Source: Candidatus Nanohaloarchaea archaeon
Lineage (GTDB): Archaea; Nanohalarchaeota; Nanosalinia; Nanosalinales; Nanosalinaceae
Length of the DNA: 64,000 nt
NCBI GenBank assembly: GCA_042218075.1
Contig: JBDGRK010000018.1
Span: forward strand, 32,001-96,000
Direction: 5' to 3'
Both the position numbers and the translations under genes were made by a program. The notes beneath the pieces are model-generated. The model saw nothing but the letters and a program-made list of their open reading frames with translations. It did not search any database and was not told the origin of the DNA. Of the stretch, positions 9,800 through 23,989 are shown one piece after another (positions within the stretch are counted from its first letter, which is position 1; every line of letters starts with the position of its first letter).

Positions 9800-11461
9800 C
9801 TAGTCTTTCTTTTCGGTTTTCAGATAATTCTCCAATTTATACACATTTAGTTCGAATCCGGAAACCGGCTGTTCAAGTTCCCAGTCTTCAAGCACTTCCC
9901 CGGATAATTCACCTATTATACCTATCCTCTCTCCTCTACATCTGATCTCGCCCTGTCTTCCCTGCCTGAAACAGTCTTTCCCAACATCTCTTACCTCCAG
10001 CTGAATACCTAAATCCCTTTCCAGAACCTGTAGAACTTCTCTAGCGTCTGTGAAATCTGCATCTCCATGAGATTCGACGTAGGCAAGTTTCCTACAGTTT
10101 CTCACACCGGTGTATGATGATTCTGAGGGTATTGAGACATCATCAACCTCAAAGAACTTCTGCGGGTAACTTCTATGCTTATTTCTCTTCAGCACATTCA
10201 TCATGCTTGGTAACAGCCAGTTCCTCACAACAGTGTAATCCTCGGTTAATGCATTGCTCATCTCGGCAACCTCTTTTTCTTCGACATTCATTCTCTTGAA
10301 AAGTTTCTCTTTGTTCGAGAGTATGTAAGTATTTGTCTCAAGTGCACCTGTTCCCTGAAGTACATCCCTCAAAATATTGCTGAAATCGCTTAATTGGTTT
10401 TCTTCAGCAGTCTGATCAACCTCAGGCAGTTCAGGCTGAATATTATCATACCTGTGCGCGATAACTATATCCTCTATCAGGTCATACTGATGCATTATGT
10501 CGGTCCTGTAAGCCGGTACCTCAACCTTTATCTCATCACCCGCTTCCGCACCGAACTTCATCTGCTTCAGTCTATCCATCATCTCCGATCTGGAAAGTTC
10601 AAGCCCTGAAATTCTATTGGCATATTCGGGATCGATCTTCCATTCCCCTGGGGAAAGCTCCGGCATTTTTTCACCATCTAATTCAACTGACTCGATAACT
10701 CCTCCCCGCTCTTCCAGAGCAGTGACCAGAATGTTAAGCGCCTTTACAACCGATTTCCTATCATTCCCGGTAACATCTATGAAAATCTCACTCGTCCCTG
10801 TATCTACTTCGGTCAGCTGGTTGTTTATTATGGGGGGAAAACTAAGCACCTTGCCCTCCGAATCCTCGATAATTGGATATCTATCATTATCCTCCAGTAT
10901 CCAGGAGTACTTTATCCCTTTCTCGTGCTCGCTCAGGATTTCACCCAGCTGCATATGGCTGTCGTATTCCAGCGGTTTGAAGCTGACCTTTTCGGGCTCG
11001 ACCGCCCTGTAGGTGAAAGGAGGTTCTAAAACTGAGAGATCGTGAAGCCCAATAGCGAGTTTCTCCCTTCTTCTTCCTATCGTCTCGTGCAGCTTTTCCT
11101 GCATCTGGATGAGTCCGTTTATCATCCTGTCTGAAAGTTCTAAATTCCTGACAACAGCCCCGGCTATAACCGGCCTTACTTCATCTACCGATTCATGGAT
11201 ATCTACAGATATATCGCCTCTTTTCACATTGTAACCCTCTATACCTGTATCAACGCCAAAGAATCCTCTGTAGGCTCTTGCCAGACCTTCAACCGATAGA
11301 AGATCTGGCCTGTTTGGATATACTTCTACATCCCATTTTTCACCTTCTACATGGTTCCAGTGGACTCCCAGAAAAGAAGCCTCCTCGTCCAGTCGCTGTT
11401 CCTCTATTTTTTGTCCAACCAGTTCATCGAATTCTCTCTTGTTGATCTTGATGTGCGCCAT
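9800..11461 (-). CDS. pheT: Phenylalanyl-tRNA synthetase beta subunit
   Basis: PNRPDLLSVEGLARA, QEKLH, VLSFPPIIN, VPAYRTDIMH. Confidence 0.96.
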   Translation of the reverse strand: MAHIKINKREFDELVGQKIEEQRLDEEASFLGVHWNHVEGEKWDVEVYPNRPDLLSVEGLARAYRGFFGVDTGIEGYNVKRGDISVDIHESVDEVRPVIAGAVVRNLELSDRMINGLIQMQEKLHETIGRRREKLAIGLHDLSVLEPPFTYRAVEPEKVSFKPLEYDSHMQLGEILSEHEKGIKYSWILEDNDRYPIIEDSEGKVLSFPPIINNQLTEVDTGTSEIFIDVTGNDRKSVVKALNILVTALEERGGVIESVELDGEKMPELSPGEWKIDPEYANRISGLELSRSEMMDRLKQMKFGAEAGDEIKVEVPAYRTDIMHQYDLIEDIVIAHRYDNIQPELPEVDQTAEENQLSDFSNILRDVLQGTGALETNTYILSNKEKLFKRMNVEEKEVAEMSNALTEDYTVVRNWLLPSMMNVLKRNKHRSYPQKFFEVDDVSIPSESSYTGVRNCRKLAYVESHGDADFTDAREVLQVLERDLGIQLEVRDVGKDCFRQGRQGEIRCRGERIGIIGELSGEVLEDWELEQPVSGFELNVYKLENYLKTEKKD

Positions 11462-11472
11462 TCACAATCACC

Positions 11473-12852
11473 TCAGAGATTCGGCCTCCAGACCGACGTG
11501 TTTTCCAGTAGTTCGATATCATTCCTGTAGAGTTCCCTGACATCTTCAAGACCGGCTGATCTCATCGCAATCCTTGGAATTCCAAGTCCCCAAGCCAATA
11601 CCGTAGCCTCGAATCCTAACATGGGTTTTACCACCTCAGGCCGGAACATGCCTGATCCGCCGAGACCTATCCATTCCTTTTCCTGGGAATCCCAGACCTG
11701 GACTTCCACGCTCATCTCGGTGTAGGGGTAATAGCTGGGGATAAGCCTGAATTGATCGTATCCCATCTTTTCAAAGAACTGGCTCAAATAGGCCTTAAGA
11801 TTCACGAAGTTTAGATCTTCTCCCACCACAATACCATCCGACTGGTAGAACTCAGCATTATGATAACGATCAATAGTTTCATTCCTGAAAACTCTTGAAG
11901 TAGTGAAGAACTTGGCCGGAAGATCTTTCTTCTCAAGTTCCGCAAGTTTCTGCGCCGAGACACCTGTAGTATGAGTCCTTAAAACATTTCTTGAAGCCTC
12001 CTTCTCCGACCAATCATATTCCCATCCAGAGCTTCCGGTCTCCCAGCCGTTCTCATGAGTTTGCTTTACTCTTTCAACGTAGTCTCCCTGCTCTGACAGA
12101 TCTGATTTCTCAGGCTTTTTCATAAAGAATGTGTCCTGCAACTCTCTTGCCGGGTGATCCTGCGGTATGTAGAGCGAATCAAAGCACCAGAAGCCCGGCT
12201 GAATGAAGGATCCTTCCATTTCTTTGAATCCCATTTCCCTCCATGTTTTGTTTGCATATTCTATTATCTGCTTGTAGAAGTGCTTCTTTCCCGTCCTGGG
12301 CGTCTTAGTCCTCGCCTCAACGTTGAAATCTTCTTCTATCTCATCCGGTTCTATCTCGTCTCCTCTCTCCGAAAGCAGAAGCTCTCTCCTGGTGGCTTTC
12401 TCAACCTCAACTAGCCCTCTTTCCTGAATCTCTTCATCAAATTCTCCTTCCTCCAGCCTCTGCCGGGTAACATCTTCAGCATCTTCACCTGGTTCAGTCA
12501 GGTAAACTTCTCCTTGGTCGACTTCCACCCAATTCTTCTCACGGGCCTTCCCGAGCGCAACGTCCAGTTCGAGATTTTCAAGCTCCGAGAGTTGTTTCTC
12601 GCCTCTGCTGACCCTCTCCACCAGCCTGTACTCCGGCGACCCTTCTTCAACTATCTCCTCTCCCTCACCTGTTAGTTCGTAGCCGATAACCTCTTCTTCC
12701 TCGACTTCTACAAGATCTTTCTCCTCCAGTTCTAAAGCCGCCCTGTTAACCATGCTCTGGTCGTATCCCATTGCTTCAAGGTCCTCTACCGTAAGTTCGG
12801 AGTGATCCTTGAGCTCTTCCAGGATCTGGATGGCCTGGGAGGAAAGCCTCAT
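11473..12852 (-). CDS. pheS: Phenylalanyl-tRNA synthetase alpha subunit
   Basis: PQDHPARELQDTF, LRTHTT, FRNETID, GMFRPE; ATG 12852 follows SD GGAGGTG. Confidence 0.96.
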   Translation of the reverse strand: MRLSSQAIQILEELKDHSELTVEDLEAMGYDQSMVNRAALELEEKDLVEVEEEEVIGYELTGEGEEIVEEGSPEYRLVERVSRGEKQLSELENLELDVALGKAREKNWVEVDQGEVYLTEPGEDAEDVTRQRLEEGEFDEEIQERGLVEVEKATRRELLLSERGDEIEPDEIEEDFNVEARTKTPRTGKKHFYKQIIEYANKTWREMGFKEMEGSFIQPGFWCFDSLYIPQDHPARELQDTFFMKKPEKSDLSEQGDYVERVKQTHENGWETGSSGWEYDWSEKEASRNVLRTHTTGVSAQKLAELEKKDLPAKFFTTSRVFRNETIDRYHNAEFYQSDGIVVGEDLNFVNLKAYLSQFFEKMGYDQFRLIPSYYPYTEMSVEVQVWDSQEKEWIGLGGSGMFRPEVVKPMLGFEATVLAWGLGIPRIAMRSAGLEDVRELYRNDIELLENTSVWRPNL

Positions 12853-12972
12853 GCGTGCACACCTCCGGAGTGAAGCTTTAATAACCCGGCCTGTATCCAA
12901 AAATCTATAGCTGAGTCCGAATAGAAATTTTCAATACTCGAAAAAACGTCCACCCTTCAAAGACAGACTCAT
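12849..12972 (-). promoter_or_regulatory. pheS leader: uORF MSLSLKGGRFFEY* with candidate +1 shift site CGT-TTT-TTC
   Basis: uORF 12972-12931; +1 frame open 30 codons to a TGA overlapping the pheS ATG; TATA-like CTTAAG at 12995-13000. Confidence 0.7.
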
Positions 12973-13010
12973 GAAATACTTATGAAAACAAAAACTTAAG
13001 TAGATTGGCT

Positions 13011-13772
13011 CTATGCAGTCTCGATTACCGCCGCAAGTAGTATAAGGCCTAGACCCAGGGACACCAGCTTTAGATAGTCGATCCAGGTGTCTCTCTCGAA
13101 GTGCTTTCTGTAGACCGCTGCGGAGATCAGAGATCCTGAAACACCCGCAACTATGAACCCTAACATCTCAAGTGTAGCATGTGGGATATAAACCACGGAA
13201 TGGGCTGCAGACAGTTTCTTGGCTAAGAATCCCATGAATGTTCCTAGAACCGATGCGTTCCATACAAGTATGAAGGCTCCTGAAGAGCTTATTACGGCTG
13301 AAACAACGAGGATTATTCCAAAGACCAGTAAATTATTGATCAAAACCGATAGAAAAGCTGAAGGCGATGCTGCAGACCCGGTCACGACTGCCTGGATACT
13401 TGAACCTCCAATAGTAGAAACTCCTAGCGACTCTAACTGGGCTGCATACTGTGAGACCTGTATTGAAAGGTTCTCCGGCGAAACCAGTATCGCTAGAAGG
13501 AAGAAAGCCGCTACCTCACCCAGGAACAGCGAGCCGTATATCCTGATCTCCTCAAAATGAGGTCTGCCATCCTCCCTTTCATCCTCCAGGAAAGTTCTGG
13601 TGAGGGGATAAAGGAGAGGAATAGATGCGAAAACTACAGCGAGAATCGATACATCCGAGGGAAAAGCAACGGTCGCGGCAATGTATCCCAACAGTCCGGA
13701 TGAAAGTCCGAGCAGTGCCAGCAAAATGTAATTGTCCTGCTTTCCCTCCCTGTAGATCAGCTCCGGAAGCAT
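13011..13772 (-). CDS. SpoIIM/DUF95-family membrane protein
   Basis: Multi-TM; INN, WNASVLG, PHATLE and AAVIE motifs. Confidence 0.8.
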   Translation of the reverse strand: MLPELIYREGKQDNYILLALLGLSSGLLGYIAATVAFPSDVSILAVVFASIPLLYPLTRTFLEDEREDGRPHFEEIRIYGSLFLGEVAAFFLLAILVSPENLSIQVSQYAAQLESLGVSTIGGSSIQAVVTGSAASPSAFLSVLINNLLVFGIILVVSAVISSSGAFILVWNASVLGTFMGFLAKKLSAAHSVVYIPHATLEMLGFIVAGVSGSLISAAVYRKHFERDTWIDYLKLVSLGLGLILLAAVIETA

Positions 13773-14674: not shown

Positions 14675-15778
14675 TTAAACCGAAAACTCCAGCTCTTCCT
14701 CCACGTACTGCTCGACTCTCGGCGCTTTTTCTTCTCTTTTCTGCTGGTGTTCATTCAGGAACTCCTCCATTTTCTGCCTGGCGATCTGCTTGAGTTCACC
14801 GGAAAGCATTTTCCCGCTCGAGTACTCCTGCTTGATTCTCTGGAGCTCTGAATCATCCTCTACCAGGTGGAATGTCAGAAGCTCGAAAACCATATCTTCA
14901 GATAGATCGGCTCCCTTTTTCCTGTGTTCTTCAACGGAATCCTGTCCCCCGGTCTTTGCTTCATCGATCTTCTGCTTCGCCTCCTCGATCGAATCCGTGA
15001 GCGCGATATAGCTCTTTGGGTCGCTGCTCGACATCTTGCCTCCCTGAAGGCCTCTCATGAACTTGTTGTAGGTGGAGGAAGGCTTCACGAAATCCTGCCT
15101 TCTGTACTTCGATGCGACCTCCCTTGTCAGCCTGATATGCGGATCCTGGTCCAGACCGACCGGAACAACTGTAGGTTTCGGACCTCCGTTCTCCGGGAAC
15201 TGTGGCCTCAGGATGTCAGCATACTGCGTGAGGGCCGAGGCTATCTTGCCGGGTTCCGCGTTTCCGTATGTTGCCTCCATTTCATTCTGCGTCAGGTGCT
15301 TGGCAAACATTTTGGATCTCGCAAGGTGGTCGTTTCCAGCCTGGCTCTGGAAGTAGAAATCCACGCTCTCAATATCAATCCCCAGAGCCGCATAATTCTT
15401 CAGGTACTGCTCCACCACCATCTCTCTCGCCTCTTCAAACGATATGTCTCGAGTATTATAGGATTCAATGTCCGCCGCCGCGATCGTGACCTCTGCACCC
15501 ATCTGCTGGTACATCTTGATCTGGTCGACCACGCACTTGTGGCCGAAGTGGAAGATTCCGGAGGGCATTATACCGGTGATCATCGCAAAGTCCTCTCCAT
15601 CCTCTTTCGCATCGAGAAGCACATCCAGGTCCCGGTGGCCGAAGACAATATTCCTCCTGATGAACCTGTGGTCCGGCATCCGGTCCTCTACTTCCTCTAT
15701 AGGCTCGATACCAAACTTCTCCATCTTCTCTCGATAGTTTCCAATCTCAACATCTCCCCAAGGATCGATCTCAGGCAT
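14675..15778 (-). CDS. trpS: Tryptophanyl-tRNA synthetase
   Basis: TGIMPSGIFHFGH, VPVGLDQDPH, KMSSS. Confidence 0.96.
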   Translation of the reverse strand: MPEIDPWGDVEIGNYREKMEKFGIEPIEEVEDRMPDHRFIRRNIVFGHRDLDVLLDAKEDGEDFAMITGIMPSGIFHFGHKCVVDQIKMYQQMGAEVTIAAADIESYNTRDISFEEAREMVVEQYLKNYAALGIDIESVDFYFQSQAGNDHLARSKMFAKHLTQNEMEATYGNAEPGKIASALTQYADILRPQFPENGGPKPTVVPVGLDQDPHIRLTREVASKYRRQDFVKPSSTYNKFMRGLQGGKMSSSDPKSYIALTDSIEEAKQKIDEAKTGGQDSVEEHRKKGADLSEDMVFELLTFHLVEDDSELQRIKQEYSSGKMLSGELKQIARQKMEEFLNEHQQKREEKAPRVEQYVEEELEFSV

Positions 15779-15782
15779 TTTG

Positions 15783-16880
15783 TCAACCTCTTACTTCGAT
15801 TTTCTTCTCTGTAAACTTTTCAAGCTTCTTATGATTGATTTTTGACTCAAATTCTGGATTTGAAGGTATCTCGATATGGCCATTCTTCATCTCTGGCTTA
15901 TCCATAATAGTTTCTCTGAAGTATCTCGACTGCGGAGCTATATCCGAAGGATGTGCAACCTGGCTCATGCTTGCAGCAGCTAATTGGTACATGGCGCCGA
16001 TACCTGATTCAACCAAGCCCCCTATCCATAGATCAATATCTTTCTCTTCGCATATGGAGTTTATCTCCTTCGAGGCTTGAATGCCTCCTACTCTCTGAGG
16101 CTTCAGATTGATTATACTACAGGCATCAAGCTTAGAAGCTCTTCTTACATCCTCAGGACTTCTTATACTTTCATCCAGACAGATAGGAGTATCTAAATCC
16201 TGAGAAAGAATGGAGTGATTCACGATATCTCTGTGGCCGAGAGGCTGTTCAATCATCTGAAGATTAAACTCGTCAAATTTCTGAATCCTCTCTCTATCTT
16301 CAAGATTGTAGTTCGAGTTCGCATCCACCATCAGATCATAGTCAGGAAATTCGTCCCTCACAGCTTTGACATACTTGACATCGTTACCAGACCTGATTTT
16401 TATTTTAGCCCTAGAATACCCCTTTTTCCTGTATTTTCGAACCTTATCAACGAGTTGTTCAGGATTTTCCTGTATTCCTATACTTACACCACATTCAGCT
16501 CTTTCTTCCTCTCCTTCAAACAGTTCAGAGAGATTTTTCTCTTCCTCGATCATTTTCCTGTTATGAAGAAGCATTTCACCTGCAGACTTAGCCATCAGAT
16601 TGCCTTTATACCCGGAAATTGATTCTCGATATTCCTCTATAGATTCAGCATTTCTTATAGCAGGTATAGCGAATCTTTCCATAAACTCAATTACAGCTTC
16701 CGTATATTCATGGTTATAGAGAGGAGCGAACTGAGCAGAAGCCTCACCATAGTAAAATCTCTCATCGTCAAAACACATCAAAATCACTACTTCTCTGTTC
16801 CTAATCTCTCCAAAACCAGTCTCAAAAGGATTCTTCAAGGGAAGCTGGACCTTTCTAATCTCGAATTTCTCAAAATCCAT
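15783..16880 (-). CDS. OSBS/N-succinylamino acid racemase (enolase superfamily)
   Basis: PFETGFG, KIK, DANS, EQPL, LDES, NLKPQRVGG. Confidence 0.85.
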   Translation of the reverse strand: MDFEKFEIRKVQLPLKNPFETGFGEIRNREVVILMCFDDERFYYGEASAQFAPLYNHEYTEAVIEFMERFAIPAIRNAESIEEYRESISGYKGNLMAKSAGEMLLHNRKMIEEEKNLSELFEGEEERAECGVSIGIQENPEQLVDKVRKYRKKGYSRAKIKIRSGNDVKYVKAVRDEFPDYDLMVDANSNYNLEDRERIQKFDEFNLQMIEQPLGHRDIVNHSILSQDLDTPICLDESIRSPEDVRRASKLDACSIINLKPQRVGGIQASKEINSICEEKDIDLWIGGLVESGIGAMYQLAAASMSQVAHPSDIAPQSRYFRETIMDKPEMKNGHIEIPSNPEFESKINHKKLEKFTEKKIEVRG

Positions 16881-17931
16881 CAGAGACCTCCTCCAAGAAG
16901 GTTTGCAAGATTTTACAGTACTGTTCCATACTCTCTATCTCAACGTATTCATTCTCGCCGTGGAGATCGTATCCTTCAGGGCCGAAACAGACCGCAGGTA
17001 TTCCTCTCTCCGTGAAGAACCTCATGTCACTGGCAAAGTTTTCTCTTCTGAAACCTGCTTGACCTGAAACCTCTTCAGCAGAGCTCCTCAGACCCTGTAC
17101 AAAGACATTATCTTCATCCGCCTCCATCATCGGAGCTTCTTTCAGGATCTCTGTATCAATTCCTTCTATACCTTCAATGTCCTCCAATACCTGATCTCTC
17201 GGATATTGATTTGAGAAACGTATATCGAGCTGTACAGACGCCTTATTCGGAATTTTGTTTACAGGACCTTCTGAAGAAATTTTTCCAAGGTTGATAGTGG
17301 TTGAAAAATTTTTTTCGTGGTCGAAGTTTTCCCTGATTTCCTGGTATTTTTCCAAAAGTTTTTCTGCCGCGTTTTCACCTTTCTCCGGTTTTGATGAGTG
17401 CGCTGATTTTCCTTCAGTCGAGATTTCCAGCTGTAGCACTCCCTTCTGCCTGGTTACTATGGAGGGAAAGCTTCCTGAATCATCAGGCTCACCGGATACA
17501 ACGAACTCGGGCTCGAGATCGGCCTCATCGATCACATAGCCTGTGCCGTTAAATCCTCCTCTCTCCTCATCTGAGGTCAAGAGAAGTGCGACATCTTCAT
17601 CCTCTAACCCCTCCAAAACTTTCATCATGCAGGCCACGCCCGACTTCATGTCAGCAGCACCTCTCCCATAGATTCTGCCGTTTTCTACCTCTGGTTCGAA
17701 AATTTCGTCTTCTGCTCCGATCACATCAAGGTGGCCATGAAGAAGTATCCGGGGGTTTTCACCCCTTGAGATCAGAACAGATTTCTCATCATTTTTCTCG
17801 AATCGCTGAAAATCTAGCCCGGAATCAAGCTGTCCTTCTATGTAGTTCAGACAGTTTCCGAGTTCCTGAGCGTTTCCTTCAACGGTTTTGAACCGGATAA
17901 GATCTTTCGTGGTTTCCTCAACGGTTTTCAT
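16870..17931 (-). CDS. M20 metallo-amidohydrolase (ArgE/DapE family)
   Basis: HGHLDV, YGRGAADMK, DEE, GEP, C-terminal HGENE. Confidence 0.9.
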   Translation of the reverse strand: MKTVEETTKDLIRFKTVEGNAQELGNCLNYIEGQLDSGLDFQRFEKNDEKSVLISRGENPRILLHGHLDVIGAEDEIFEPEVENGRIYGRGAADMKSGVACMMKVLEGLEDEDVALLLTSDEERGGFNGTGYVIDEADLEPEFVVSGEPDDSGSFPSIVTRQKGVLQLEISTEGKSAHSSKPEKGENAAEKLLEKYQEIRENFDHEKNFSTTINLGKISSEGPVNKIPNKASVQLDIRFSNQYPRDQVLEDIEGIEGIDTEILKEAPMMEADEDNVFVQGLRSSAEEVSGQAGFRRENFASDMRFFTERGIPAVCFGPEGYDLHGENEYVEIESMEQYCKILQTFLEEVSDGF

Positions 17932-18705
17932 GCTACTCTCTCACCGTTTTCCCGGAACTCGTAGTCTGAGGCTCGGGCTGCTTTTGCTAGGCTTTGTGCA
18001 GCATCTACTTCGGAAACTTCTCCTGCCACTACTATTGCATCTCCATCTTCGAAGGACATATCTAGGCCTTCTTCTCCATACATGAATTCTTCAAATTTAT
18101 CGTTGGGAGGAACTTCCGAGTACATACCTCCGTCGTATATATCCGCGTAGGCTTCCCTCATTACTGCTCCATCCATTTCCTTGCTTGGATTAATCTCATT
18201 TCCCAAAGCCTGAATTTCCTCCATAATTTCATCGTCTTCTCTTTCAGGATGCGGGTAAAACTCGAAACAGTTGTCGGCGCACTGGACCATATCGGGATTC
18301 TGAGTCCTGTAACCTACCAATTCCTCTCCATCAGCCAACTCCATTACTCCCCTACTCAGCAGTGTGCTTCCTACACATCTGCCCTGTAAATGATCACTTA
18401 CGGCTAGTCCCTCCTCATAGATCGCATCAGCCTTCTTGGAGACACCTGAAAAGGCCACATACTCGCCGCTCTCATCCTTCGCAGTGATTAAGAGAGGAAC
18501 ACGCAGATGAGCCTCGGCATCCTCTTCAGTAGGAACACCTTCCTTGGAGAAAGCATCCTGCGCCACATCAACAAGCTGGGACTCAGCCTCAGGATTCTCA
18601 TCCAGAAAACTTTCAGGATTTTGATAAACCTCTATCTCAAGGCTGTTTCCAAAAGCGTCCACCCTTCGGGGCTTCCGCTGTACCGTAGTCTTCTTGTGCT
18701 TTCAT
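17928..18705 (-). CDS. GNAT-like acyltransferase, probably expressed via a +1 frameshift near 18652
   Basis: LAVSDHLQGRCVGSTLL acetyl-CoA motif; ATG 18705 frame (MKAQEDYGTAEAPKGGRFWKQP*) joins the main ORF by +1 at TTT-TGG; GTG 18662 is the alternative start. Confidence 0.65.
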
Positions 18706-18803: not shown

Positions 18804-18951
18804 TTAAAAGTTTAGATTCAGTCTTGGATCCAGAAAAATCTTGAGAACTAAATACCATGAGAAATTCTTGATGGAAGAAATTCGGACGTAACTACGACTG
18901 ATTAAATCAATAGATACAGCGGGTCCAAAAACATCCACCTTTCAGCCGCAT
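18804..18951 (-). promoter_or_regulatory. Upstream Trp leader: uORF MRLKGGCFWTRCIY* with shift motif TGT-TTT-TGG
   Basis: uORF 18951-18907 after TATA-like TTTTTAAG (18973-18980); +1 frame open 40 codons to TAA at 18804. Confidence 0.6.
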
Positions 18952-22135: not shown

Positions 22136-22283
22136 ATGAAAGGTGAATATTTTGGATTGTCGCAGGTTCCATCTGGAAGCTGCGTTGAGAAGCAGAATTC
22201 CTGCTTCGAATCGGCGATCAAGTAAAGTTTCTATAAAACCAGCTGTAGCTATAAAAACTTCTTCTCCGAGTGATTCTGCATGA
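22136..22283 (+). promoter_or_regulatory. glyS leader: 29-aa uORF MKGEYFG... with candidate +1 shift site TAT-TTT-GGA
   Basis: uORF 22136-22225; +1 frame open 42 codons to TGA 22281-22283 overlapping glyS ATG 22280; TATA-like ATTTAA at 22103-22108. Confidence 0.68.
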
Positions 22284-23989
22284 GGCTAGGCGAGAAAGTC
22301 ACCGAGCTTTCGAAGAGAAGAGGCTTCTATTTCCATACCTCCGGGGCTTATGGTGGAGTCGGAGGCTTCCAGACTTTCGGTCCAGAGGGAGCAGAACTGA
22401 AGAGAAATATTGAAGACTCCTGGAGAGATAAGTTCTCGCGCGAGCTTGGAAACAGGGAGATTGAAGCTCCGACAATCATGCAGGAAGACGTTTTCCGGGC
22501 TTCTGGCCACCTGGAGACTTTCGATGATATGATCATCGAGTGCCCGGAATGCGGAGAGTCCATCAGGGCAGACCACCTGGTCGAAGACAACACCGGTATA
22601 GAGGAAGCGGAGAGCCTTTCGACGGAGAGAATAGAAGAGCTGATCTCCGGGCACGACATCAAGTGCGGCTCATGCGGCAATGAACTCTCGGAAATCGAGG
22701 TGGAAGACTTCAACCTGATGTTCGAGACTTCTATCGGTCCGGGAGATTCACAGCCCGGATACCTGAGGCCAGAGACAGCGCAGGGCATCTTCGTTGAGTT
22801 TCCGCAGCTGAAAGAATACGAGAGAAACCAGCTCCCGTTTGGTATAACCCAGATAGGTAAGGCGTACAGGAACGAGATATCTCCGAGGAAAGGGCTTGTC
22901 AGGGTCAGGGAGCTGACTCAGGCAGAACTGGAAAAGTTCATCGATCCGGTGGAGGATGAACCGCCGCTTGAGGAGGTAGATGACGTGGAGCTTAAGCTCT
23001 ATCCGCGTGAAAGACAGGGAGAAGGAGAACAGGATTACCTCAGGCTCACCGTTAGAGAGGCAGTCGAAGAGGAAGTTGTTGAGTCTGAGTGGATAGCCTA
23101 CTACCTCGCTCACGCCAAGCTCTGGTTCGAGTCGATTGGAGTCGACATGGAAAGGTTCAGGTTCCGCCAGCACCTGGAGGACGAGCTCTCCCACTACTCG
23201 ACGGACTGCTGGGACGCTGAATCACAGGTGGATGGAGACTGGATAGAGATCGCGGGATTCTCATACAGGGGGTGCTACGACCTTTCAAAGCACGAAAAGT
23301 ATTCCCAAGATGACTTCAAAGTCTTCAAAGAATATGAAGAGCCGAGGGTCGAGAAAAGAGCGAAGGTGGATCCCGACATGGGCTGGCTTGGTCCAACTTA
23401 CGGAGACCACGCTTCAGAGATAAGTGAAGAGCTAGAGAGGATGGTGGAGGAAGAGCCAGAAGTCTTCGAGAGGAATGAAGAGCTGAGGCTGGAGATTGAC
23501 GGAAAGATGTTTGAAGTTCCGGTTGAGAAGACAGGCTTCAAGATAGAAGAAGTTAAGAAGAACGGCGAGCACATTCTGCCACACGTCGCGGAGCCTTCCT
23601 TCGGCATCGACAGGGCAGTCTACACTGTGCTTGGCCACGCCTACGACGAGGACGAGGTTGATGGAGAAGAACGGAAGGTGCTCAGGATGTCGAATGATGT
23701 TGTGCCGACGCAAGTAGCTGTCTTTCCACTAATGGACAAGCCGGAGCTGAGTGAAAAAGCCAGAGAGGTCGAGCAAAAGCTGAGGAATGCTGGATTCTCT
23801 GTGAAGTACGATGAGTCGGGAAGCATCGGAAAGCGCTACAGGAGGCAGGACGAGATCGGGACTCCTTTCTGCATCACCGTTGACTACGAAACCCTTGAAG
23901 AGGAGCCGGAGACAGTCACTGTAAGGTACAGGGATTCGACAGAGCAGGAAAGAATAGACATCAGTAAACTCAAAGAATACCTGGAGTAA
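22280..23989 (+). CDS. glyS: Glycyl-tRNA synthetase (alpha2 type)
   Basis: YLRPETAQGIF, YRNEISPR, EPSFGIDR, RYRRQDEIGTP. Confidence 0.96.
   Translation: MRLGEKVTELSKRRGFYFHTSGAYGGVGGFQTFGPEGAELKRNIEDSWRDKFSRELGNREIEAPTIMQEDVFRASGHLETFDDMIIECPECGESIRADHLVEDNTGIEEAESLSTERIEELISGHDIKCGSCGNELSEIEVEDFNLMFETSIGPGDSQPGYLRPETAQGIFVEFPQLKEYERNQLPFGITQIGKAYRNEISPRKGLVRVRELTQAELEKFIDPVEDEPPLEEVDDVELKLYPRERQGEGEQDYLRLTVREAVEEEVVESEWIAYYLAHAKLWFESIGVDMERFRFRQHLEDELSHYSTDCWDAESQVDGDWIEIAGFSYRGCYDLSKHEKYSQDDFKVFKEYEEPRVEKRAKVDPDMGWLGPTYGDHASEISEELERMVEEEPEVFERNEELRLEIDGKMFEVPVEKTGFKIEEVKKNGEHILPHVAEPSFGIDRAVYTVLGHAYDEDEVDGEERKVLRMSNDVVPTQVAVFPLMDKPELSEKAREVEQKLRNAGFSVKYDESGSIGKRYRRQDEIGTPFCITVDYETLEEEPETVTVRYRDSTEQERIDISKLKEYLE

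Follow-up and report, generated by a model that had tools for sequence, protein, structure and literature searches.

At the prfB frameshift site, a Shine-Dalgarno (SD)-like element stands 3 nt before the slip codon and the A site is slow. T-boxes and classical attenuators are bacterial, and to our knowledge little has been established on how archaea adjust the levels of aminoacyl-tRNA synthetases (aaRSs) to tRNA charging. In this study, we performed a comparative analysis on a 64,000-nt stretch of the genome of a Candidatus Nanohaloarchaea archaeon (the window; contig JBDGRK010000018.1 of assembly GCA_042218075.1, positions 32,001 to 96,000 of the forward strand), in which a short upstream open reading frame (uORF) precedes pheS, the gene for the phenylalanine--tRNA ligase alpha subunit. 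The reading that fits the comparisons best, and that we consider likely, is that this uORF is a translated sensor of Phe-tRNA(Phe) charging, which would act by programmed +1 frameshifting at a hungry codon and would be coupled to the downstream start.

Among described systems, prfB appears closest in architecture, leader-peptide attenuation and the T-box in logic, and the ketolide-induced ermC frameshift in output. As at prfB, frame 0 is a short ORF with an SD-like element inside it, placed about 3 nt upstream of the slip codon. The tRNA on the P-site codon might re-pair one base forward, and a slow A site would report the level of the regulated factor, the frameshift being sensor and effector in one. 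Unlike prfB, the leader has a cognate sense codon instead of UGA in the A site and would sense charged tRNA instead of a release factor; the +1 frame of pheS would be a throw-away spacer ending on the start codon, with product fusion only in some Trp leaders; and the host is an archaeon, in which the modular cassette serves 11 or more amino acids. With E. coli pheM-pheST and with trpL, hisL, thrL and ilvL, the leader shares a short translated ORF whose cognate codons would report charging, placed before aaRS and biosynthetic genes. However, the archaeal leader has one sensor codon and no codon run (except for an Ile-rich run in the ilvA leaders, which lies in the +1 frame), it conserves an open +1 frame and has its own TATA box, and hairpins were not found in the window leader. 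The T-box of Gram-positive bacteria is likewise a modular leader, used regulon-wide, in which a single specifier triplet corresponds to the aaRS or amino-acid gene that follows, but it binds uncharged tRNA directly and without translation, whereas the archaeal triplet would be read by the ribosome. The window leader gave no Rfam match to a T-box.

In the ermC leader ORF, ketolide-induced frameshifting sends ribosomes into the spacer and activates downstream initiation, as described in PMC5009743; that bacterial system is triggered by an antibiotic instead of by an empty A site, and cognate-codon logic is absent from it. Hungry-codon frameshifting (Gallant and Lindsley) and the yeast Ty1 site CUU-AGG-C are known frameshift cases as well, according to sections of PMC5009743 and PMC8211752, but these are laboratory starvation effects or retroelement expression at a set ratio, and neither regulates the matching synthetase. 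The section on Archaea in a 2021 review counts only one programmed frameshift, a -1 case, as reported in that domain (PMC8211752). A full-text literature search on archaeal aaRS leaders, frameshifting and uORFs found no report of such leaders. Regulatory +1 frameshifting is known, but we found no precedent for its use as a tRNA-charging sensor.

The Leader ORF Upstream of pheS

The uORF occupies 12972..12931 on the minus strand (ATG 12972-12970 to TGA 12933-12931), in the intergenic region between a 253-aa membrane-protein gene (13772..13011, minus) and pheS (12852..11473, minus; 459 aa; NCBIfam NF003210, E 3e-131). Frame 0 encodes MSLSLKGGRFFEY, the codons after the ATG being AGT CTG TCT TTG AAG GGT GGA CGT TTT TTC GAG TAT TGA. 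The conserved core AAG GGT GGA CGT TTT (12957..12943) comprises an SD-like GGUGG, a spacer of 3-4 nt (A + YGY) and the putative slip codon UUU (12945-12943); the following triplet, TTC for Phe (12942-12940; position X below), would be in the A site while UUU occupies the P site. Entry into the +1 frame after TTT 12945-12943, in a T6 run (12946-12941), opens 30 sense codons, SSIENFYSDSAIDFWIQAGLLKLHSGGVHA, plus TGA (12941..12849, minus; sense part 12941..12852). This frame ends in CAC GCA TGA, and its TGA (12851-12849) overlaps the pheS ATG (12852-12850). Among the other frames, -1 stops after 35 nt and frame 0 after 9 nt. A preliminary description of the locus had reported the uORF, the slip in the T6 run, the 30 codons and the GCA TGA over the pheS ATG, and every one of these statements was correct.

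The same description had placed a TATA-like box above the uORF ATG. The box, TACTTAAGTTTTT (P1; 13002..12990, minus), is present as part of the leader's own putative promoter and starts 27-30 nt upstream of ATG 12972, and the leader mRNA is probably leaderless or nearly so. Among 150 leaders of the family described below, TATA-like pentamers peak at -42..-25 from the leader ATG, with 44, 89 and 62 matches in three 6-nt bins and only 2-13 in each of the remaining twelve; this spacing is the one typical of archaeal promoters. A further suggestion, that the tandem Phe codons recall a pheM-like run, did not hold, as the first TTT is the slip codon, invariant across all amino-acid classes, and the sensor would be TTC alone. 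The T6 run is no family feature either (e.g., CGC TTT ACC before thrS).

Census of the Leader Family

We searched 70 genomes of the nanohaloarchaeal class, with the reversed pattern as control. The core shared by the window and a genome of another genus (G020) gave 32 matches vs. four in the control, and these matches were the same cassette before other genes, such as ...CGT TTT TAC at tyrS and ...TTT TCC at serS. The pattern AARGGTGGAYGYTTT, with the core AAR-GGT-GGA-YGY-TTT-X, yielded about 159 matches in 51 of the 70 genomes vs. three in the control. Judged from these counts, the window uORF is not a chance occurrence and is a member of a large conserved leader family. The analyses below cover 153 leaders from 50 genomes (148 matches outside the genome of the window and five within); the three leaders in the window were analyzed separately, and three pattern matches (two in G004, one in G001) were left out.

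In a collection of species-representative genomes, the pattern ATGAARGGTGGAYGYTTT was found in at least 119 stretches, with Nanohaloarchaea, Nanohalobium and Nanosalina as carriers. Among the 80 stretches listed, about 30 belonged to nanohaloarchaeal or other archaeal metagenome-assembled genomes, and the rest were scattered singletons in unrelated bacteria, at about the estimated chance rate. In the genome of the window, motif variants with AGA or other Gly codons lay in coding regions or had no leader context and were dropped as chance matches, and no leader was visible in the 260 nt upstream of cysS.

The Codon After UUU and the Downstream Gene

The downstream gene was defined as the first ORF of at least 120 aa, and such an ORF lay within the stretch examined for 145 of the 153 leaders (eight had none); 75 of these genes were named by NCBIfam and the rest by BLAST to those. 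An aaRS gene followed 98 leaders (glyS 26, thrS 22, serS 21, tyrS 11, valS 11, cysS 3, pheS 2 and trpS 2). Three leaders stood in tandem before one trpB, four preceded ilvA-type threonine ammonia-lyase genes, one preceded trpD and one an aminotransferase gene. For 38 leaders the first ORF was not identified as an aaRS or pathway gene.

The preliminary description had pointed to a Phe codon at the shift site of the pheS leader, and the family bears this out. The triplet X after TTT was a codon of the cognate amino acid in all 98 aaRS-linked leaders (Thr, Gly, Ser, Tyr, Val, Cys, Phe and Trp), and no leader among these 98 stood before an aaRS of a non-cognate amino acid. In addition, TGG leaders also preceded trpB and trpD, and ATC/ATT leaders preceded ilvA. 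Within a class, X varied only synonymously (ACC/ACA/ACT, TCC/TCT, TAC/TAT, GTA/GTG/GTT, ATC/ATT). The match between codon and gene, together with this synonymous-only variation, shows X to be a codon that is read in register with the upstream ATG. Across the family the A-site position held 18 different sense codons, TTC in the window, and never the stop UGA of a prfB-type site. The leader ATG came directly before AAR in 75 of 151 leaders, giving MKGG[R/C]F-X.

A Pfam scan of 30 of the 38 first ORFs without such an assignment, and of a 244-aa ORF in the window, found mostly no family; those of the Trp type include GNAT-like, M20 and aminotransferase proteins. Single leaders with a Phe, His (CAT) or Leu (CTG) sensor were also seen before non-synthetase genes (L206, L215, L175, L224), one of them a GCS2-like ligase gene and the others without a Pfam family.

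Conservation of the +1 Frame

The preliminary description had further proposed that the +1 frame couples to pheS, which found support in the family as a whole. The +1 frame stayed open for at least 60 nt after X in 153 of 153 leaders, vs. 38 for the -1 frame and five for frame 0, and the median distances from X to the first stop were 103, 38 and 27 nt, respectively. Furthermore, the +1 frame mostly ended at or over a start. In 98 of the 145 leaders with a downstream ORF, no more than 15 nt separated the +1 stop from the earliest start codon in that ORF, as compared with 12 for -1 and none for frame 0, and the stop overlapped the start codon as NTGA in 32, two and zero cases in the same order.

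The mode of ending differed among the classes. In thrS, glyS, cysS, pheS and trpB leaders, the +1 frame mostly ended in aTGA or gTGA, and in serS leaders in ATGCTTGA. In tyrS and valS leaders the +1 stop fell 3-12 nt before the ATG and was preceded by an SD-like AGGT or GGAGG, and in some Trp leaders the +1 frame was the frame of the next long ORF. Stops were avoided already in the first +1 codon: the base after GTA was C or T in 12 of 12 leaders, which excludes TAA and TAG, and that after GTG in three of three, which excludes TGA. In 83 of the 153 leaders, the +1 frame was closed 17 nt before X by the TGA of an aTGA, so that ribosomes coming from further upstream cannot enter it there.

Ile leaders before ilvA-like genes (G000:C36:73356, i.e., L068; also L140, L145 and L177) had a +1 frame with an Ile-rich end, e.g., SIISIIGIIG-stop, which ended 37-66 nt before the gene. 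This run could be a second-stage, attenuator-like sensor that would be reached only after the shift. Several Ile leaders also repeated the motif KGG[R/H/C]VL in frame 0.

A second conserved box, TCAAAACCTTCTAG (in the window TTGAAAATTTCTATTCGG, ~12934..12917, minus), was seen at many loci downstream of the frame-0 stop and ahead of the gene-proximal TATA box. Its sequence is similar to the anti-SD (ACCUUCU vs. ACCUCCU), and it has stops in two frames, so that only the +1 frame is left open. The box may serve as an RNA partner of SD-like elements, as a promoter element or as a frame filter.

Constraint on the Core, Pairing and Folding

When the synonymous positions of the core were freed (ATGAARGGNGGNYGNTTY), 78 matches were found in the class vs. 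one in the control. GGT was kept in 78 of 78, GGA in 77, YG[T/C] in 78 and TTT in 78, and TTC never took the place of TTT. Codons for Arg (CGY) and Cys (UGY) interchanged freely at the same time (CGT 79, CGC 31, TGT 34 and TGC 9 in the census). A peptide motif would not leave GGC and TTC unused and yet accept Arg for Cys, and the constraint is thus on the nucleotides, on RNA rather than on a peptide.

RGGUGG can form 6 bp with UCACCU of the 16S rRNA 3' end, which reads ...GGAUCACCUCC in three relatives; 3' ends were extracted from four relatives, one of which (L236) gave none and was dropped. GGUGGA lies 3-4 nt before UUU, as does the SD-like element of a prfB-type site. Re-pairing of tRNA(Phe) in the +1 frame would be on UUU or UUC, and perfect, where the first base of X is U or C (Phe, Tyr, Ser, Cys, Trp, His and Leu).

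In local folding, the Gly class alone had a hairpin immediately downstream of X (26 leaders; mean z = -2.16, with 69% below -1.5), the other large classes being near 0, and a 3' stimulatory hairpin is therefore no family feature. For the 26 Gly leaders RNAalifold predicted 0 pairs, a result of the poor MAFFT alignment of the variable spacer. The hairpin of the Gly leaders (L110-L229, e.g., L161, L163 and L180) starts in or just after the GGA sensor codon, and its stem varies in sequence with pairing kept.

The pheS Gene, Its Start and Its Promoter

The comparison places the start of pheS at ATG 12852 and gives no support to the longer TTG start at 12900, which the preliminary description had called probably wrong: 29 other PheS loci start at the residue aligned with this ATG ([M/V][K/R/E]LS...). 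A probable pheT for the beta subunit (11461..9800, minus; 553 aa), named from sequence and position only, follows. An SD sequence, GGAGGTG (12866..12860, minus), lies 7 nt upstream of the ATG, and a gene-proximal promoter box, TTATTAAAGCTT (P2; 12884..12873, minus), lies 20 nt before it and inside the +1 frame. In most relatives, pheS comes directly after the same membrane-protein gene and starts at a GTG, with the box ATATTAAAGCTT 20 nt upstream and without an SD, a leaderless layout. Most leader-less relatives keep the same box at the same spacing.

GGAGGTG preceded pheS in all three leader-bearing loci (the window, G020 and G051), and an SD-like word was found in only three of 28 leader-less loci. 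In the three leader-bearing genomes the SD (12866..12860 in the window; also L132 and L135) sits between the proximal TATA box and the start. Transcription from the usual distance after the proximal box would leave the SD out of the mRNA, and its presence fits translation of pheS from a longer transcript.

G020, in which PheS is 63% identical to that of the window, has an inserted small ORF, MSPSEAQGTLKGGRFFRL, which shares 19 identical nt with the window uORF and has a +1 frame of 36 codons with TGA over the pheS GTG. The homologous pheS leader of G051 reads ...DYKGGCFFRG and has a +1 frame of 22 codons. All three pheS leaders end the +1 frame as NTGA. A metagenome scan with PheS returned 44 loci from other archaea, all at most 43% identical, and GGTGGA-NNN-TTT was present in the 700 nt upstream of none of the 44.

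Other Leaders in the Window

Two Trp leaders form a tandem pair on the minus strand. Leader A, MRLKGGCFWTRCIY (18951..18907), has the sensor TGG at 18927-18925 and a +1 frame open for 121 nt. Leader B, MKAQEDYGTAEAPKGGRFWKQP (18705..18637), has the sensor TGG at 18651-18649, and in its +1 frame runs the 244-aa ORF (18662..17928, minus; no Pfam family). This ORF heads an operon that continues, on the same strand, with an M20 deacylase gene (17931..16870) and an o-succinylbenzoate-synthase-like enolase gene (16880..15783) and ends in trpS (15778..14675). The residues VYQNPE just after the shift site in the 244-aa ORF recur in the +1 frame of the homologous leader L188, as read by eye from the DNA. 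Tandem Trp leaders, up to three before one gene, were also seen at L157 (G016:C22; trpB), L162 and L228.

A diverged Gly leader, ATG AAA GGT GAA TAT TTT GGA (MKGEYFG...; 22136..22283, plus), has its frame-0 stop at 22223-22225 and a +1 frame of 42 codons with TGA over the glyS ATG at 22280 (ATGA). It keeps GGUG, UUU, GGA and the ATGA-ending +1 frame. The glyS gene (22280..23989, plus) is 69% identical to the ORF of a relative that NCBIfam names glyS. The motif pattern missed this leader, and the census is therefore an underestimate.

Discussion

From the layout of the leader, the match between codon and gene, the conserved +1 frame that remains open until the start codon, and a core constrained at the nucleotide level, we infer frameshifting, its trigger by scarce charged tRNA, a role of GGUGG and the switching on of the downstream gene. 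A transcript from the leader's own promoter would start at or near ATG 12972, and the ribosome would read M S L S L K G G R F until peptidyl-tRNA(Phe) is on UUU in the P site with UUC in the A site. With plentiful Phe-tRNA(Phe), frame 0 would continue to the stop three codons on, and pheS of this transcript would be poorly translated. With scarce Phe-tRNA(Phe), the A site would be empty, and the tRNA in the P site, held on UUU by weak pairing only and put under strain by the upstream pairing of GGUGG with the 16S 3' end, would shift one base forward. The shifted ribosome would then translate the 30 +1 codons across the spacer and the SD and terminate at the TGA overlapping the pheS ATG, and would thus be delivered to the pheS start. 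Termination-reinitiation would be our first choice for the last step; the passing ribosome might equally well unfold the SD region or keep the transcript from being terminated early. Low charging of tRNA(Phe) would in this way lead to more PheRS being made. The interpretation given in the preliminary description is as a whole backed by the comparative evidence, which widens it beyond pheS to a whole family of modular leaders.

The device is modular: with a different codon at X, the cassette recurs before thrS, glyS, serS, tyrS, valS, cysS, trpS and genes of the trp and ile pathways. On balance we favor the view, with less confidence than for the pheS leader itself, that Nanohaloarchaea carry a regulon-wide, modular, ribosome-based tRNA-charging sensor for at least eight synthetase genes plus trp/ile pathway genes, acting by hungry-codon +1 frameshifting. 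Its parts would be an own promoter, GGUGG-N4-UUU, one exchangeable sensor codon and a +1 frame ending at the gene start.

Several observations weigh against this interpretation. The 16S gene was not found in the window's own genome, so the proposed pairing with GGUGG rests on relatives, and the pairing is short, 6 bp with two G-U when R = G. If X begins with A or G (Thr, Ile, Gly and Val), the slipped tRNA(Phe) mismatches at the third base. Coupling of stop and start is not universal, as the +1 stop was more than 15 nt from the start in 47 of 145 leaders, among them the ilvA leaders and many Trp leaders. The pheS leader itself is rare: it was present in two of the 30 pheS loci read (the window and G020), the third, G051, having come from the pattern searches, and the three same-genus loci read (G001, G002 and G004) had none. 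Leaders within one amino-acid class share descent, so that the counts overstate independent events and about nine amino-acid classes are the independent units. The census was defined by the motif, and the invariance of the core is therefore partly circular; the search with freed positions covers synonymous positions only. Finally, the preliminary description had held that a pheS transcribed from a promoter downstream of the uORF and indifferent to leader mutations would speak against it, and in the promoter part a conserved pheS box, TTATTAAAGCTT (12884-12873), does lie downstream of the uORF. Basal, leader-independent expression of pheS is hence likely, beside which the leader would add a conditional component, and the proximal box is kept in most other leader classes too.

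Part of the evidence would be shared by a leader that works by stalling only, like an attenuator, in which a pause at the sensor codon alters RNA structure or termination without a frameshift and the +1 frame is open for another reason, e.g., an overlapping small ORF from GUG within GGUGGA. A cognate codon and a short frame-0 ORF suit any ribosome-based sensor, and GUG is invariant in the +1 frame and is the first start of the long ORF in some Trp leaders (the 244-aa ORF of the window, and trpD in L101). Moreover, in both the window and G020 the stretch from the leader stop to pheS contains T5 and T6 runs, and archaeal RNA polymerase terminates at T runs of this kind. However, the fold of 12972..12830 (-38 kcal/mol, z = -0.45) did not differ from shuffles, terminator and antiterminator hairpins were not found in the window leader, where the sole terminator-like match was the motif itself (0.5 expected), and the hairpin after X is confined to the Gly class. 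Stalling alone also leaves unexplained that in 153 of 153 leaders the way to the start codon is open in the +1 frame and in that frame alone, that UUU is never UUC, and that the base after GTA or GTG never creates a +1 stop. In the MK-type leaders, 75 in number, only 7 nt separate the GUG from the probable 5' end, too few to accommodate an SD, and a ribosome stalled at X would cover this GUG. We therefore regard stalling without a shift as unlikely. That the uORF of the window has no function, being a decayed or chance copy of the cassette with pheS expressed only from the box at 12884-12873, would agree with the intact and conserved gene-proximal promoter and with the three same-genus pheS loci that have no leader. 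Yet every family feature is intact in this copy (the core, UUU, the cognate TTC, the short frame-0 tail and the 30-codon +1 frame ending in ATGA) and also in two genomes of another genus despite different spacers of 36 and 22 codons, and GGAGGTG precedes pheS in the leader-bearing loci, which makes loss of function very improbable.

Two further explanations were weighed. In an RNA-level tRNA sensor analogous to the T-box, which would work without translation, X would pair with the anticodon of uncharged tRNA and UGG of GGUGGA with the CCA end; the specifier-like triplet that matches the gene and the core fixed at the nucleotide level are in line with this, and AGGGUGGA resembles the T-box core GGGUGGNAC. 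We nevertheless think such a sensor highly improbable. The only match in an Rfam scan of 12700-13200 (E up to 10) was RF02610, a chance match with 12.2 bits against a threshold of 382, and none was to a T-box; X is just 6 nt past the GGUGGA block, too near for one tRNA to be contacted at its two ends; UGG is followed by the same A in every amino-acid class; and in all leaders X shares the frame of an upstream ATG, which in turn is preceded at about 30 nt by a TATA-like box. Nor would a T-box analogue give the conserved +1 frame a role. The core might also be bound as DNA by a transcription factor, or be an element near the promoter that aaRS genes have in common, since it is fixed at the nucleotide level and the second box, TCAAAACCTTCTAG, recurs upstream of the gene-proximal TATA box. 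Such a site leaves unexplained both the class-specific codon with its synonymous-only variation and the frame-specific absence of stops, and we give it hardly any probability.

The reading of the leaders as frameshift-based charging sensors bears on annotation as well as on regulation. Gene callers extend pheS to the TTG at 12900, and they would start the first ORF of the Trp operon at a GTG inside the motif. If the reading is true, hungry-codon frameshifting, until now regarded as an artefact of starvation or a trick of retroelements, would be a natural sensor and effector, with a compact and testable model of four elements: an SD-like box, UUU, a sensor codon and a +1 spacer. Archaea would then have a codon-programmable switch for at least 11 amino acids, and the regulon-wide sensor of the Nanohaloarchaea would be a functional counterpart of the bacterial T-box that acts through the ribosome.

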